Program-made: the position numbers and the translations under genes
In this document: positions 21,692 to 54,500 of the stretch, in pieces
Numbering within the stretch: the stretch's first letter is position 1
How the letters are laid out: every line of letters starts with the position of its first letter
The notes under the pieces: generated by a model
What the model was told of the DNA's origin: nothing
Seen by the model: the letters and a program-made list of their open reading frames with translations, nothing else
Databases searched by the model: none
From: an uncultured Candidatus Saccharibacteria bacterium
GTDB taxonomy: Bacteria; Patescibacteriota; JAQUNI01
Length of the DNA stretch: 54,576 nucleotides
Direction: 5' to 3'
Assembly: GCA_964555185.1 (NCBI GenBank)
Contig: CAZKRD010000005.1
Location: 1 to 54,576, forward strand

Positions 21692-21825
21692 AAGGTTTTT
21701 ATCACTTGATTTTATATTATAAGATTTTTCAAGATTTCACAAGGAAGGTGTCGATTTTACAAAAATGTGTTAAAATAAAATTGGGCTTTTAAGAGATTTT
21801 AGATTAAGAAGGGAAATGAGAATTT

Positions 21826-21880
21826 GTAGGGGCGCGCTCCACCTTCGCTCATGAGCTTTAGCGGACAGGCATGGCGCGCC
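21826..21880 (+). repeat. GC-rich element (family B start plus family C core)
   Basis: It starts GTAGGGGC, as does the truB insert. GGCGCGC (21831-21837) and GCGCGCC (21874-21880) form a stem. The enclosed CCACCTTCGCTCATGAGCTTTAGCGGACAGGC (21839-21870) matches 47215-47246 at 28/32 positions. Confidence 0.65.
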
Positions 21881-21902
21881 TGATTGTGGGGACTATAATT
21901 TT

Positions 21903-22208
21903 ATGTTTGATTTCAAAGAGCTTCAAAAGGAAATTTACAAAAATAAAGTTGCCAAGAAATTTAATGTTACGGATGTTCCTTTAGAGTTTTCCTATACCTA
22001 CGGTGAATTGGCCGAAGCCTTTGATGCTTATCTTCAGAAGAAACCAGATCTAGGCGAGGAATTAGCTGATGTTGTAATCTATATTTTAGGTTTAGCTGAG
22101 ATTTTAAAGATTGATTTAGAAAAAGAAATTTTAAAGAAAGTTGATAAGAATAAAAGGAGAAAATTTCAAATAGTGAAAGGAGTGCGGGTTTGTGTTAAAG
22201 GGAAATGA
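21903..22208 (+). CDS. MazG-like nucleotide pyrophosphohydrolase
   Basis: YGELAEAFDAY...LGEELADVVIYILGLAEILKIDLEKEILKKVDKNKRR. Confidence 0.8.
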   Translation: MFDFKELQKEIYKNKVAKKFNVTDVPLEFSYTYGELAEAFDAYLQKKPDLGEELADVVIYILGLAEILKIDLEKEILKKVDKNKRRKFQIVKGVRVCVKGK

Positions 22209-22803: not shown

Positions 22804-23463
22804 ATGCAAAAAATCGTTCCTGTTAGGAAAATACCCGGCTTTTCTACTTATGATCTAATTCGGATTTTTAAGAAAAGAACTGGTTTTTCGGGAAAGATTG
22901 GTCACGGCGGCACATTAGACCCTTTTGCTTCTGGGGTTGTTTTGTTATTATTAGGAGAGGCAACCAGGAAGTTTGAAACAATTAAAGGATGGGAAAAGAC
23001 ATATTTAGCCGGCATCAGACTTGGCGCTTCTTCTTCCACGCAAGACGTGGAGGGCGAGATCGTAGGGGCAGGTCTTGTGCCTGCCCGATTACGGGCGACC
23101 ACAAGGGTCGCCCCTACAGAAATCACGATAGGGAAGATCAAAAAAATCCTAAAACAATTTCAAGGCGAGATTAATCAAAAAGTTCCTCCTTATTCTGCGG
23201 CAAAGCACCACGGCCAGCCGCTTTACAAATTAGCTAGAAAAGGTAAAATGATTAGTAAAACTAAAAAGGTAACAATTAAGGAAATAAAACTAGTTGCTTA
23301 CAAGTGGCCGCTTTTAACAATCAGGGTTACGACCTTAGGTGGAACCTACATCCGTCAATTAGCTTTAGATATATCTCAAAAACTTGGCACATCTGGTTTT
23401 CTATATTTTTTGGAAAGAGAAAGAGTAGGGAAGTACAAAATTTCTGACTGTTCTTTGAAATAA
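22804..23463 (+). CDS. truB: tRNA pseudouridine-55 synthase, short form without PUA domain
   Basis: GHGGTLDPFASGVVLLLLGEATR (catalytic Asp motif) and QKVPPYSAAKHHGQPLYKLARKG. Confidence 0.9.
   Translation: MQKIVPVRKIPGFSTYDLIRIFKKRTGFSGKIGHGGTLDPFASGVVLLLLGEATRKFETIKGWEKTYLAGIRLGASSSTQDVEGEIVGAGLVPARLRATTRVAPTEITIGKIKKILKQFQGEINQKVPPYSAAKHHGQPLYKLARKGKMISKTKKVTIKEIKLVAYKWPLLTIRVTTLGGTYIRQLALDISQKLGTSGFLYFLERERVGKYKISDCSLK
23062..23118 (+). repeat. 57-nt GC-rich nested-palindrome element in frame inside truB (family B)
   Basis: GTAGGGG...CCCCTAC outer arms. Hairpins GGGCAGG/CCTGCCC (23066-23072/23080-23086) and GGGCGACC/GGTCGCCC (23093-23100/23106-23113). Encodes VGAGLVPARLRATTRVAPT. Confidence 0.65.
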
Positions 23464-27123: not shown

Positions 27124-27254
27124 AACATATACAATTTAAGTAGGGGCTTGATATTCTGGACCCTGCTTGTTTTTTTTCGAAATATTTGCTAAATTAGACT
27201 GTTAGATATAAAAGTGATCCATAAGGCTCTTTACTAATTAGAAGGAGGTGCGCG

Positions 27255-46692: not shown

Positions 46693-46774
46693 CCTTGGCT
46701 TTCTTTGATAATTAAATCTTTTTTTAATTATTTTTTGTCTCTTAAAAATTATTTTAGGTTTTTCATTTTTTCTG

Positions 46775-47188
46775 TGGACATGATGGGAGTCGAACCCATG
46801 TCTGGAGAGCTAATTTAAAATTACTTTACAGATTTAGTTTGTTTAAAGGATTCGATTTCTGGCTTAAAAACAAACAAAACAGCCAGTAATCTATTTCAGT
46901 ATGGTGTTTTCGGATTATCTCTTCCTGAAAACAAGAAACAACCTATCCTGCAATTTGTGCCTCCGAGATTTACCTAGCAGGAGTTGGTAAAAGGAGGCGC
47001 CCTTAAGCTTTTTTAAGCAAGAGCAAAGGCAGGTGAAAGACGGGGAGCAAAAAGATTTGCTAGCCGTTCTTTGACCCTAGAAAATGTTTTGGCATTTATC
47101 CTTGTTTCGAGTTTTTTATGAGGGAGCACGAAACATTCCTCAATCTGAAAACCTTAAATTTATGCTTCCATCGAAGCCTGGCATGCCC
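46775..47188 (-). ncRNA. ssrA: tmRNA (SsrA)
   Basis: 5' GGGCATG pairs with 3' CATGTCC, giving a G3-U70 pair. GGCTTCGATGG follows the 5' acceptor strand. T-arm ATGGG-TTCGACT-CCCAT. PK1 is GAGG..GTTTCG..CCTC..CGAAAC. The tag frame ends ...PAFALA-TAA (stop 47015-47013). smpB lies immediately upstream. Confidence 0.85.
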
Positions 47189-49614: not shown

Positions 49615-50787
49615 ATGCATATTGGTATTGATTGCCGGGCAATGCTGGGCAAGGGAGGGATTGCCCACTACACCTACAATCTAGTTAAGAACCTTCTAAT
49701 TCAGGACAGAAAAAATAATTATGTCCTTTTTTTTGACGCTAAGATGAGCCAAAGTCTAGGAAATACACTTGAACAACTTCATTGTTCAATAAAGTATTTC
49801 CCGGGATCAGATTTTAAAAAAGTCCTTCCTTTCATTTATACTCATTTTGTAATTGGCAATTTTTTGAATAGACAAAAATTAGATTTGTTCCATGCTCCCA
49901 CTGGCTCCCTCCCGCTGACTTACAGAGGCAAGGCAGTGATTACAATTCATGATTTGGCGATTTACAAGCATCCAGAATGGTTTCCTTCGGGTCAATGGTT
50001 TTCCAAAAAAATAGTGGTGCCTCGGTCTTTGAAAAAAGCAGACAAAATCATTGCTGTTTCGGAAAACACCAAGCAAGATATTATTGACTTGTTTCAAATT
50101 CCAGAGCACAAGATTCAAGTAATTTATGAAGCCTCCTCTCTGTCATCGCGAGGAGGAGGGCAAAGCCCGACGAGGCCTGCCTGCCGGAGCCAGGGCTCCG
50201 GCAGGAAGCAATCTCCTTTAGAGACAAAACTGCACAATTTAGATAATTATATTCTATTTATTGGTACCCTAGAGCCCAGAAAGAATCTAACCCGTTTGTT
50301 AAAAGCTTTTGCGTTGTATTGCCGCAAATATCCGAAAAAAACCGAGAAATTAGTCATTATTGGGGGAGAGGGGTGGAAATTTGAGCCAATTTATCAGGCT
50401 GTTGTGGATTTAAAGCTCAAAACCAGGGTAGTTTTCACTGGTTATGTTTCGGAAAAGAGGAAAACAGAGCTCTTAAAGGGGGCGAAAGCCCTTGTTTTTC
50501 CTTCGCTTTATGAGGGTTTTGGCCTGCCGGCCCTAGAGGCAATGAGTTTAGGGGTTCCCGTGATTTGCAGTAATAACAGCGCCTTAGGAGAAATCAGCAA
50601 TCAAGCCGCTTTTCTTGTTAATCCGCGGGACATTAGGTCTATCTTCAGAGGATTGGCAAGAGTTTTACCTGATAAAGCTCTAAGGGAGGAGTTAAAAGAA
50701 AGGGGACTTGCCAGAGCCCGATTGTTTTCTTGGTCAAAATGCGCCCGAGAGACCCTAAAAGTTTTCAAATCAACAATTAAAAGTTAA
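49615..50787 (+). CDS. GT4-family glycosyltransferase carrying an in-frame repeat insertion
   Basis: MHIGIDCR..., ILFIGTLEPRKN and EGFGLPALEAMSLGVPVICSNNSALGEI. Confidence 0.85.
   Translation: MHIGIDCRAMLGKGGIAHYTYNLVKNLLIQDRKNNYVLFFDAKMSQSLGNTLEQLHCSIKYFPGSDFKKVLPFIYTHFVIGNFLNRQKLDLFHAPTGSLPLTYRGKAVITIHDLAIYKHPEWFPSGQWFSKKIVVPRSLKKADKIIAVSENTKQDIIDLFQIPEHKIQVIYEASSLSSRGGGQSPTRPACRSQGSGRKQSPLETKLHNLDNYILFIGTLEPRKNLTRLLKAFALYCRKYPKKTEKLVIIGGEGWKFEPIYQAVVDLKLKTRVVFTGYVSEKRKTELLKGAKALVFPSLYEGFGLPALEAMSLGVPVICSNNSALGEISNQAAFLVNPRDIRSIFRGLARVLPDKALREELKERGLARARLFSWSKCARETLKVFKSTIKS
50141..50215 (+). repeat. GC-rich repeat family A copy inside the GT4 CDS (75 nt)
   Basis: TGTCATCGCGAGGAGG...GGAAGCAATCTC with a perfect 11-bp hairpin CCTGCCGGAGC (50180-50190) / GCTCCGGCAGG (50195-50205). 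Encodes SSRGGGQSPTRPACRSQGSGRKQS. Confidence 0.65.
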
Positions 50788-51534: not shown

Positions 51535-54500
51535 ATGCAGGGTCAGAAAAAAACAAAAACAAAGTATATTTCATTGAGTGATGCCACCCAATACTGCGAA
51601 TACTCACAGGAGTATTTGAGTTTGCTCGCCCGTCGCGGCGTTCTGCCTGCTGTAAAGCTCGGCCGCAACTGGTTCACAACCAGAAAAGATGTTTTGACTT
51701 ACGTGAATAAAATAGCGATTAAAAGAGGGGAAGATTTGGTCCCAATCCCAGAAGAGGCTGAAGATGTGCCGGTTAAAGTTTTTAAAGTTTTTAATGTTTT
51801 CGAGAGATCAGAATCAGAGAAAGACAAGCAAGAAGAGGTGCCTGCTAAAGAATCTCTTCATTGGTTGCCTGCTCCTCTGCGTCCGGTTTTAGTCAATACT
51901 TTGGCCTTGGCCGTGATTCTGATTAACATCTTTTTGGTTACGGACGGTGTTTTAGCAAAAAAGGGAAGTGTCAGGGACAAAATCAGGGAAGCGGTGGTTA
52001 TTAGCGCAAAGAAAACAGTGAGCATTGGTCAGGAAATCAATATAGTTACTTCAAAAAAGGCTGGTCAAGCAGGAAAGATTTTAATTTACGGCAGTCGGGA
52101 ATTAAATAACAAGGTTTCAGTGGTGGTGATTACAGGAGGCAGAGAGGGATTTTTAGAAACAGTGGAGAGAGTCAGAAAGATACCGCAGAAGATAAGCACT
52201 TTTTCTGAAGAAGTTTCTGATCAGGCGATTAGTTTCGTAAAGAAGGGGGAAATTGAGGAAAAAACAGCTGATCTTCCTCCAGGTCAAGAAAAAACCCCTG
52301 ATCTCGAAGGAGTGGATCAGGGTGCCCAAGAGAAAGACAAAGAAGCAGAGGAGATTACGGACTTGTCCCAAAGACTAAATGAAATTAAGGATGATTTGCG
52401 GGAAATCGGTGAAGGAATCCCAGGTTTTGACTCATCAGAAGATAGAGATGAGTTTATTGTCGAGACAGCAGAGGATGTTTTCCCTGTTGAAGAGTCTGCT
52501 TCCGAGAGCGCCGTCAGGATCTGGCAGAAAGTATTAGACATACCGCAGATAACAAGCCGGAAATTAAAAGAAATTGCTCTAGGAATCATTGATTCTCCTG
52601 GTGTAATTATTGAAAAGTCCACAGAGATTTCCGTTAAAACCCAAAAAGAGATTTTTTCTTGGCCGGGCGGCCTGGTTAGTCTTGGTAGAAGCAACTGGCA
52701 GAAACTCATCTCGGCCAAGAACCAGATTGCCGGTCTGCCCTCCGATTTCCAAAAAGGGCGTGACAATCTCTATGAACAAGCCAATAATAAGACCGAAGAG
52801 GTGGTCAAGGGCGCTTCCACAACCTTAGAGGATACGCAAGAGAAAGGCAAAGAGCTTGTTGAGAGGACAAAACAGGCTGCTAGCGAAAAGGAAGAGTCCC
52901 TCAACAATACTTTCGGTCTAGCTTGGCGCAAAACCTCCTCGTTTTTAAATAAAGGGGTAGAAACCGTAGTCGAAATCAGCGGTTCTAATGCCGAGAGTTT
53001 ACTTGGTTTTTTCCAGGCTTCCGGAGAAAAAACCTTGAGTTTAGGCCAAAAAGTCAAAAAAGACTATAACGAGACGATTGAAGGCCTTTCTAATCTTTAT
53101 TTAGTCTATGACCACGGCGCGGCCCCAGACAGCCATTCAGTCTGGGGCCGCGTCCCGGGTCGAGCAAAGGGTGATTTAATGGTTAGGGAGAAGGAGACAC
53201 AAGGAGAAGAAACCCCTGTTGAGATTACTGACCATGGAGATTTGCCTCCGCCCTCAACTCCTCCCGCAGAAAGCCCGGATCTGCCTAAAATAACCTTAGA
53301 ATATGTTACCTTAAACGGCGCAAGCACGTCGCAAGTCTTAAGCTTACAAAACGGCGTGTTTTTTAATACCGGTATCCAAGTGGGCGAGCTAGCCGAATTT
53401 AAGAGAAGCGTTGATATCAGAGAACGCTTAACCGTGGGCACGTTCGCTGCTTTTAAAGGCGATGTTTTGATGTATAAATCCTTGACCACTTATGGCAAAA
53501 CCGAGCTTCAAGACGATTTAACCGTAGGAGACGAGGATTTCCATGTAGACACCACTGCCGGCAATGTCGGGATTGGCACCCTTTACCCCCAGGAGAAGCT
53601 GGATGTGGCAGGTAATGTCAAAGTCGGCAAGAACCTTTTAGTGGTAGATGAGGCCCACCTTTTCGATAATTTGTTAGTTGACGGTTATTCCGAATTCATT
53701 GGTATTTTAAACGCTAATGGCGGGATTGAAGTAGATGGCGATAGATTTGTTGTTGACGGTAAGACCGGCAGTGTGGAAACCGCCGGCAGTCTAACTGTGG
53801 AAGACCAAACTTGGCTTAACAGTAATGTTGCATTAGGTGATGCTATAGGAGATACATTAACCGTTAATGCCCGGGTTGGTTCTGATTTGATTCCTAAAAC
53901 CACCACTACTTATAATTTGGGCTCTTCTAGTCTTTATTGGAACAGACTTTATGCGAATAATGTTTATACCGCCGGCAATGTCGGGATCGGCACGGAAACT
54001 CCGGGAGCAGAGTTGGAGGTCGCGGGTCAAGTGAAGATTACAGGCGGCTCCCCCGGTCTCAATAGGATTTTGCGTTCAGATGCCGATGGTTTGGCTACCT
54101 GGGTAACGCTCGGCGCCGCTTCCGTAACTCCTGATTCTTTAGATTACACTGAATTTGAGGATGCAATGGACCTGGATGCCTCCACCACCGTGACTTTTAG
54201 CGACTATGATTATATTTTTAATTTAGACTCTACTGGTGATTTTCGCGTCCAGGATAATGGCGCTGATGTGTTTATTATTGATGATACCGCTAACGTCGGC
54301 ATCGGGACCACAGGCCCAGACCAAAGCTTAGATGTTTTGAATGCAGGAACCCAGCTTAGACTCTCCTATGTTGACAGTAACGCTGTTACTGACTTTGCCA
54401 CTGGTCAAACAGGAGATTTAACTATTGATCCTTCAGGAGGCAATGTCCTTTTAGCCAATGGCGATACTTTAATCATTGGCGGAGCATTGGCCCAAGCCTA

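Follow-up and report, generated by a model that had tools for sequence, protein, structure and literature searches.

Repetitive extragenic palindromes (REPs) of the GTAG-tagged superfamily were defined by Di Nocera, De Gregorio and Rocco in 2013, with 24 families from several phyla (BMC Genomics 14:522; PMC3733652). Each has an unpaired GTAG at one end of a GC-rich stem-loop of 6–13 bp, and the preferred arrangement is the head-to-head (HH) dimer (PMC3733652). More than 50% of the REPs that lie wholly inside open reading frames (ORFs) are dimers or groups encoding 20–30 residues; Opitutus terrae has more than 60 intragenic cases, and REPs are found in the tRNA pseudouridine synthase B (truB) genes of S. 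maltophilia, E. litoralis and S. alaskensis (PMC3733652). The same survey, quoting Ogata et al., places a Rickettsia palindromic element (RPE), RPE-1, in truB of R. conorii, and equates the short intragenic RPE-4 and RPE-6 with the CGTC superfamily (PMC3733652). Here we describe an HH dimer of GTAG-tagged REPs located in frame in truB of an uncultured Candidatus Saccharibacteria bacterium, on contig CAZKRD010000005.1 (54,576 nucleotides, all of which were analysed; hereafter the window). As intragenic GTAG REP dimers and REPs in truB have both been published, events of this kind are no novelty, even in truB.

REPs are linked to the TnpA-REP transposases, also called REP-associated tyrosine transposases (RAYTs). 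Of these, subclass 2.4 is described as having REPs of the canonical long type, the stem of which starts with three G-C pairs at its foot, REPs in frame inside the tnpA-REP gene itself, and a patchy multi-phylum distribution that has been ascribed to horizontal transfer and loss (PMC6006769).

Anatomy of the element and its host gene

The truB ORF is intact and encodes 219 residues (PF01509 match, E = 3.7e-40; Table 1). A preliminary description of the window had picked out a GC-rich, nested-palindromic 57-mer inserted in frame in this gene, and the segment is as claimed: it starts at the first base of codon 87 (position 23062), comprises exactly 19 codons without a stop, and has a GC content of 64.9%, compared with 38.1% in the rest of truB. 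The truB frame continues on both flanks. In the protein, the insert lies between a strand ending in GEI and the helix formed by residues 109–118, and the peptides predicted for the region include LGASSSTQDVEGEIVGAGLVPAR and VAPTEITIGK. All 37 invariant columns of a 27-sequence alignment are kept in the window TruB. An AlphaFold2 model of the protein, built on 27 sequences, has a mean predicted local distance difference test (pLDDT) score of 88.8, with values below 50 only at residues 91–100, in the middle of the insert, and superposes on the crystal structures 1R3E and 1K8W with template-modelling (TM) scores of 0.82–0.84. The intact frame and the predicted fold suggest that the segment is translated and the enzyme active; according to the model, TruB still folds, and presumably works, with the insert in place. 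The ENA scaffold and two Logan assemblies, made independently from other runs, agree at every base of the segment, the three assemblies of the organism being identical over 6.9–20.7 kb, and it is therefore not an assembly artefact.

The element is composed of two inverted REP units with GTAG facing outward, 56 nt in all. Each unit is 25 nt long and consists of the unpaired GTAG, an 8-bp stem opening with three G-C pairs, and a 5-nt loop; in unit A, seven of the stem pairs are Watson–Crick and one is G-T. A feature of the pair is how the two units diverge: head, loop and outer stem are common to both, seven inner stem positions differ, and both stems still pair. The pattern GTAGGGGC-N4-CTTGTG-N3-GCCC matches the window twice at 0 mismatches and nowhere further at up to 3 mismatches, a tolerance at which 0.02 matches are expected. 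A pyrimidine precedes GTAG on both sides of the element.

Two adjacent hairpins or one long hairpin had both been proposed for the 57 nt. The long form, imperfect and closed by GTAGGGGC/GCCCCTAC, is the predicted minimum, both as DNA (−20.8 kcal/mol, z −4.0) and as RNA (−40.2 kcal/mol, z −4.75; 0 of 200 shuffles were as good), and the halves can alternatively fold into separate 8-bp hairpins. Each unit is thus by itself a short stem-loop, rich in GC and ending on one side in an unpaired GTAG, as in GTAG-tagged REPs, which measure 20–40 bp, and the two inverted units with their spacer are predicted to form, at minimum free energy, the single long hairpin that characterizes a REPIN and the inverted REP pairs of REPIN–RAYT systems.

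The likeness to the published GTAG REPs includes the unpaired GTAG on a GC-rich stem, the complementary stem changes, the HH arrangement and the location inside an ORF. There are also differences. None of the REP-encoded peptides listed in PMC3733652 matches the window unit, the comparison being with the listed peptides; the host, judged by what its glycosyltransferase homologues are called, has a small genome of the Patescibacteria type, a group outside that survey; and the element is low in copy number locally. The S. maltophilia truB REP is N-terminal (residues 10–16), outside the loop that holds the window element. A search of Rfam 15 over the element gave no gathering-level match, the best E value being 0.89 or worse.

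Table 1 Coordinates of the truB insert, its parts, its host gene and a nearby candidate element in the window
Feature	Position	Strand	Basis
truB host gene, tRNA pseudouridine-55 synthase, short form without PUA domain	22804..23463	+	PF01509, alignment, model
19 in-frame codons (VGAGLVPARLRATTRVAPT) in place of the native loop of about 6–9 codons	23062..23118	+	alignments
REP unit A, GTAGGGGCAGGTCTTGTGCCTGCCC: GTAG head, stem GGGCAGGT/GCCTGCCC, loop CTTGT	23062..23086	+	exact pattern match
Spacer GATTAC between the units, 6 nt	23087..23092	.	read from sequence
REP unit B, GTAGGGGCGACCCTTGTGGTCGCCC, inverted, perfect 8-bp stem	23093..23117	-	exact pattern match
Possible second GTAG-tagged element, of another type	21826..21881	+	shared 8-mer, absent from L001 spacer

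The insert as an indel among related truB genes

We compared the TruB loop, measured between the conserved residues I86 and L116, in the closest 120 of 7,096 protein hits. It is 16–19 residues long in 114 of the 120 and 29 residues long in the window, that is, 10–13 residues longer; longer loops in this set include those of P0002 (40 residues), P0008 (28) and P0047 (25, seen at the protein level). TruB of T. maritima, structures of which have been solved, has a 13-residue gap at the insert point. Aligned in this way, the 19 residues behave as an indel, as had been anticipated. The loop does lie between conserved elements, as the preliminary description stated, but its narrow length range shows that it is not freely variable.

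The closest relative is P0002, encoded at locus L001 of a different Joint Genome Institute (JGI) metagenome, with a TruB 81% identical to that of the window. A second relative, P0003 (79% identical), represents the L002 lineage, which is known from three contigs and has a truB without the insert: the 27 nt TCAAAAGAAACAAAAGAAACACCCACA, which have no structure (fold z 0.03), stand where the window has 57 nt. Because this native loop-coding stretch is missing from the window, the net change relative to the nearest insert-free orthologue is +30 nt; and because the native codons do not flank the element but are gone, the change amounts to an insertion plus loss, or to a replacement.

L001 carries a 90-nt version of the element, 33 nt longer than that of the window. 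It begins and ends at the same junctions as the window element, GAGATC/GTAGGGGCAGG and GGGTCGCCCCTAC/AGAAAT. Between them, L001 differs by four substitutions in the left unit, an altered spacer and three indels (1, 1 and 31 nt). These indels jointly restore the frame, and the internal amino acids of the encoded segment (VGAG-PCVCSRGGRPPAYAQASAGRLG-VAPT) are therefore unrelated to those of the window. The L001 element still folds well (z −3.29), and two C-to-T changes in its left 3′ arm keep the pairing as G-U. In its outer 11 and 23 nt the element does not differ between the window and L001, although 29% of the four-fold degenerate sites in truB have changed.

Outside the insert, the window truB has diverged by 12.9% from that of L001 and by 17.6% from that of L002; the L001 and L002 genes differ by 21.1%. 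The first value being smaller than the divergence of either from L002, the window and L001 are sister lineages. Judged by these alignments, the element is a lineage-specific indel relative to nearly all relatives, and the most economical reading would be that it was inserted once, when the L002 lineage had already branched off.

Additional changes are seen in this loop. The extra 31 nt of L001 could be a nested second palindrome or, equally, an internal rearrangement of the REP; in a hand alignment they are about 77% like the hairpin of a window glycosyltransferase gene described below. In the native loop of the insert-free L002 truB (L002 1224–1250), a 9-nt tandem duplication repeats AAAGAAACA and gives KETKET, and the truB loop therefore also changes length by ordinary slippage. 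Finally, P0008 (locus L129; TruB 62% identical to that of the window) has an unrelated palindromic doublet, TATGGAAGGAGCGAAGCTCCTTCCAAGAATAAGTGGAAGGAGTTCGACTCCTTCCATA, in frame in the same loop (L129, about 487–545), of the form GGAAGGAG-N3-CTCCTTCC and with a fold z of −6.7. The loop is therefore at least permissive and possibly a preferred site. The hairpin of this doublet (TGGAAGGAG-N5-CTCCTTCCA) recurs in 78 metagenome stretches; many copies are in low-GC contigs, often flanked like terminators, and a doublet of the same hairpin with identical 8-nt spacing is present in L136.

The REP family, an associated transposase and the probable origin of the insert

To describe the family, we scanned one genome per species (GTDB representatives) for the 18 specified bases of the unit pattern; by estimate, about 17 chance matches are expected in the whole collection at uniform composition, and perhaps five times more in GC-rich genomes. 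At least 120 loci, spread over about 19 phylum-level groups, contain the 25-nt unit pattern. Those among the loci listed are Acidobacteriota, Chloroflexota, Desulfobacterota, Bacteroidota, Bacillota, Pseudomonadota, Planctomycetota, Verrucomicrobiota, Nitrospirota, Deinococcota, Gemmatimonadota, Armatimonadota, Latescibacterota, Poribacteria, Zixibacteria, Bipolaricaulota, Myxococcota, Fischerbacteria and one Parcubacteria genome. The loci listed range in GC content from 22% to 73% and include a few cultured isolates. A 25-mer identical to unit A is present in other phyla at five loci (L034, L039, L041, L075 and L087), and the stem of unit B (GACC/GTC) is the commonest variant, with 22 of the 165 units in the collection scan.

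Head and loop are constant across these units as a consequence of the search pattern; the variable positions are not so determined, and they covary. Across the 165 units, 46 of them distinct, 484 of 495 variable cells are paired; 500 shuffles gave 278 on average and 316 at most. In 86% of the units the base before GTAG is a pyrimidine. A relaxed definition gives 232 units in the loci listed, where adjacent units form 51 HH, 19 tail-to-tail (TT) and 14 head-to-tail (HT) pairs; the HH spacers of other genomes measure 1–98 nt, five of them being 6 nt long like that of the window. Some other genomes contain the unit more than once (L023, L095, L027 and L082).

Two further copies deserve description. 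On a Patescibacteria-type contig (L131, about 1305–1345), a single REP of the same family, GTAGGGGCGGGTCTTGCGCCCGCCC, lies at the 3′ end of the gene for the glycosyltransferase P0126 and supplies its last residues (..SVGAGLAPART), the ORF stopping at TAG a few bases after the unit. In Parcubacteria GW2011_GWA2_38_13 (L037, 5265–5370), an intergenic HH dimer of the family is nested in a longer inverted repeat (CCCAGACTGTACGAGAATTT ... AAATTCGTTCTCGGACAGTCTGGG), which recalls the published ‘REP dimers inserted within long palindromes’.

A transposase accompanies the unit elsewhere. L023 holds ten exact units in 8 kb, with REP clusters on both sides of an ORF that matches Y1_Tnp (PF01797; 33.9 bits, cutoff 23) and contains the motifs NHLH, WQ and YIHNNP; several homologues of this protein carry the database name ‘REP element-mobilizing transposase RayT’. 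In a Bacteroidetes metagenome-assembled genome, L105 (2118–2936, minus strand) is a RAYT gene with three in-frame REP units of the same family, placed between its HuH and Y motifs. Their translation, ...VGAGFTPAL...GQPQGLPLR...RATARVAPT..., is close to that of the window element, and when they are removed in silico the Y1_Tnp score goes up from 17.8 to 26.3 bits, above the Pfam cutoff. A RAYT with internal in-frame REPs matches the published peculiarity of subclass 2.4. So do the canonical long REP with three G-C pairs at its foot, the RAYT flanked by REPs in L023 and the patchy multi-phylum distribution; the L023 motif, however, reads NHLH against a published 2.4 consensus of NH[IFV]H, and the subclass is assigned from motifs only. 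Two points contrast with what is published on REPIN–RAYT systems. REPIN populations are defined by many copies and a single-copy RAYT per genome (PMC3116915), whereas the window shows one doublet; and published work gives each RAYT its own REP family, whereas here a near-identical 25-mer occurs in about 19 phylum-level groups.

We consider it likely that the truB segment is an HH dimer of GTAG-tagged REPs, REPIN-like and non-autonomous, that landed once in the truB of an ancestor and has been tolerated and translated. In this scenario, the GTAG REP type would be mobilized in other genomes as single-stranded DNA by a RAYT (TnpA-REP, an HUH/Y1 transposase) recognizing the GTAG foot plus the hairpin. 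The ancestor shared by the window and L001 organisms would have received one dimer in the loop-coding stretch of its truB, after the L002 split. It may have survived because the resulting length is a multiple of three, because a reading frame without a stop codon runs through the element, and because the loop, between a β-strand and a helix of the catalytic domain, is peripheral and probably disordered. The element would be transcribed and translated as 19 extra-loop residues without a function of their own, and later substitutions and frame-restoring indels would have produced the 90-nt version in L001.

Several observations weigh against this account. Searches by phmmer with E. coli RayT found no RAYT in the 54.6-kb window or in L001, and none of the best 120 homologues of the L023 RAYT is on the 706,972-bp contig that is the window’s scaffold or on the 93,277-bp contig, in a search that covers word-sharing candidates. 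At up to 3 mismatches, the window holds no canonical copy besides this one, the 20.7 kb of L001 have none, and the truB copy may be a relic. In other genomes, 0 of 148 REP clusters were confirmed inside a Pfam-supported gene (29 of the 148 are spanned by long ORFs, and in the 10 of these that were scanned Pfam domains lie to one side or are absent); genic insertion is therefore rare for this REP family. A simple insertion does not explain the missing native 27 nt. Finally, the identity of the outer 34 nt despite the 29% difference at four-fold sites may reflect a constraint on the nucleic acid, or insertions that were more recent or independent; it could also reflect coding constraint on VGAG and VAPT.

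A constraint of the first kind would make the insert an exapted REP, the hairpin pair being kept by selection on the nucleic acid as an mRNA-stabilizing or ribosome-pausing structure or as a protein-binding DNA site. Both window units are at 0 mismatches to the pan-phylum consensus, although four-fold sites have diverged from L001 as given above, and the G-U pairs and folding of the L001 element would be in keeping with such selection, as would the frequent G-T pairs and the RNA action of many REPs argued for by Di Nocera et al. (PMC3733652). However, a comparison of only two lineages has no statistical power, and what they share is limited: loop, spacer and encoded residues are not conserved, and the conserved outer bases also code for VGAG and VAPT, so that coding constraint or a short elapsed time could explain their identity. 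Neither the L002 lineage nor 114 further homologues have the element, and, on reading the sequence, no T-run follows the truB hairpin, which is therefore not an intrinsic terminator. Exaptation thus seems unlikely to us.

Independent gain of the window and L001 elements at a preferred truB target would account for the contrast between a consensus-perfect window copy and a degenerate, longer L001 copy. The third lineage with an unrelated palindromic doublet in the same loop is compatible with such a target, as is the fact that RAYT-type enzymes act at short sequence signals, here with a pyrimidine before GTAG in most units. Yet the junctions agree on both sides, and the two elements have the same stem-variant pair in the same order (CAGG left, CGACC right), though 46 distinct units exist; moreover, the two organisms are sisters relative to L002. 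We regard two separate gains as quite improbable. That the segment is a native, lineage-specific TruB loop expansion, palindromic by chance, or an assembly chimera at a common repeat, as the single copy in the window and the tendency of REP-like repeats to confuse assemblers might suggest, is effectively refuted by both halves being exact instances of a 25-nt unit known from at least 120 unrelated genomes, by a GC content of 65% against 38% for the gene, by the identity of the three assemblies over 6.9–20.7 kb, by an orthologous copy in a different metagenome and by the truB frame continuing on both flanks.

The landed REP dimer that we favour has also to be placed relative to other palindromic mobile elements. 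Like RPEs, it is palindromic, lies in frame in a conserved gene, is apparently translated, and resides in a small, reduced host genome with truB as its target. RPE-1 is about 100–150 bp long, and we know of no transposase for RPEs; the REP type described here has a RAYT in other genomes. The element is not filed as an RPE because it is of the GTAG type, not CGTC, and 57 nt long, a separation that is made by description; a relationship in sequence is not expected. The analogy drawn in the preliminary description between this element and RPEs is a valid one for behaviour, namely a mobile-type palindrome present as a tolerated in-frame loop indel, and not for family membership, as the element is a GTAG REP dimer of 56–57 nt. 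A MITE (a miniature transposable element with inverted repeats), with a length of 70–300 bp, insertion-sequence terminal inverted repeats and a target-site duplication, was also considered and rejected: the element has 57 nt, and GAGATC/AGAAAT is no duplication.

Other palindromes in the window and wider bearing

GTAGGGGC, the first 8 nt of the truB element, matches the window four times (0.81 expected; reached by 1 of 100 shuffles). It recurs, as had been noted, at 21826, and also at 27140. The element at 21826 has GTAG followed by a 7–9-bp stem (GGGCGCGC.. / ..GCGCGCC) and a loop of about 34–38 nt. Approximately 90 nt holding it (21808–21897), intergenic and upstream of a MazG-like gene at 21903, are absent from the orthologous spacer of L001. 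It is a real indel with a GTAG head, the relation of which to the truB element is uncertain: the link first drawn between the two is limited to the common 8-mer, the hairpin is a different one, and its fold (z −1.44) is not distinguishable from those of shuffles. The fourth GTAGGGGC, at 27140–27180, lies between a TAG stop immediately before it and a T run behind it; it is probably part of a terminator and not a REP. When the whole window was scanned for any GT[AG]G with a stem of at least 7 bp, 34 hits were obtained, many of them redundant, compared with a shuffle mean of 16.8 and maximum of 40. As this is within the shuffle range, the window has no excess of GTAG hairpins apart from the truB pair and the element at 21826. 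Further copies of the unit, for which the preliminary description had proposed a search, are present at the many loci elsewhere; the window holds no other canonical one. That description had held that its claim would fail if all related TruB proteins shared a homologous, non-palindromic segment and the 57-mer had no other copies; the indel relative to relatives and the many unit copies in other genomes show that neither is the case.

A second GC-rich in-frame palindrome, CCTGCCGGAGCC-AG-GGCTCCGGCAGG, encoding ..TRPACRSQGSGRK..., is present at 50142–50216 in a glycosyltransferase gene (49615–50787, plus strand). The window glycosyltransferase is 8–9 residues longer at this place than its two closest relatives, and the DNA cannot be aligned with the L130 orthologue; the segment has therefore been replaced or inserted in this lineage. 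A Doudnabacteria glycosyltransferase, P0132, has a 34-residue insertion near its N terminus (..RSLLRLGRNIDNSCGWVSCPARVSNGV..), seen at the protein level. At 53109–53171, in a long ORF that runs from 51478 to beyond 54576 (plus strand), a GC-rich palindrome with a 13-bp stem (RNA, −41 kcal/mol) encodes HGAAPDSHSVWGRVPG. It was considered as a third in-frame insertion and rejected, being conserved without gaps in L130 and in a 48%-identical homologue and thus not demonstrably inserted; in L130, five transitions leave three wobble pairs and two mismatches. The sole gathering-level Rfam match in the window is a transfer-messenger RNA (tmRNA) gene at 46772–47188 (minus strand; RF00023, 118 bits).

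In the literature searched, we found no relevant report of in-frame palindromic REPs in the candidate phyla radiation. What is new here is the host, the particular REP sequence type with its very wide distribution, and a comparative series of one insert-free and two insert-bearing lineages; no new kind of element or mechanism is revealed. The locus offers a clean, datable case of a REP dimer in frame in a conserved RNA-modification enzyme, with an insert-free outgroup, two diverged sisters and frame-restoring indels, in a lineage of very small genomes, where one would not expect to meet REPs or their transposases often. For annotation, VGAGLVPAR, RATTRVAPT and GDHKGRPY in predicted proteins are signatures of the repeat and not of protein families.

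A broader proposition is that Patescibacteria have protein-coding palindromes comparable to those of Rickettsia, with the TruB strand-to-helix loop as a recurrent landing site, both for the REP dimer of the window and L001 and for the unrelated doublet of P0008, and with hairpins kept by selection on RNA or DNA structure. We hold this to be doubtful. If it were true, the near-identical 25-mer in about 19 phylum-level groups would stand for repeated horizontal arrival and loss of one RAYT lineage, and its arrivals would include reduced genomes. One GTAG REP type, with fixed head and loop and a covarying stem, is spread over many phyla, and the finding bears on how RAYT–REP systems spread.

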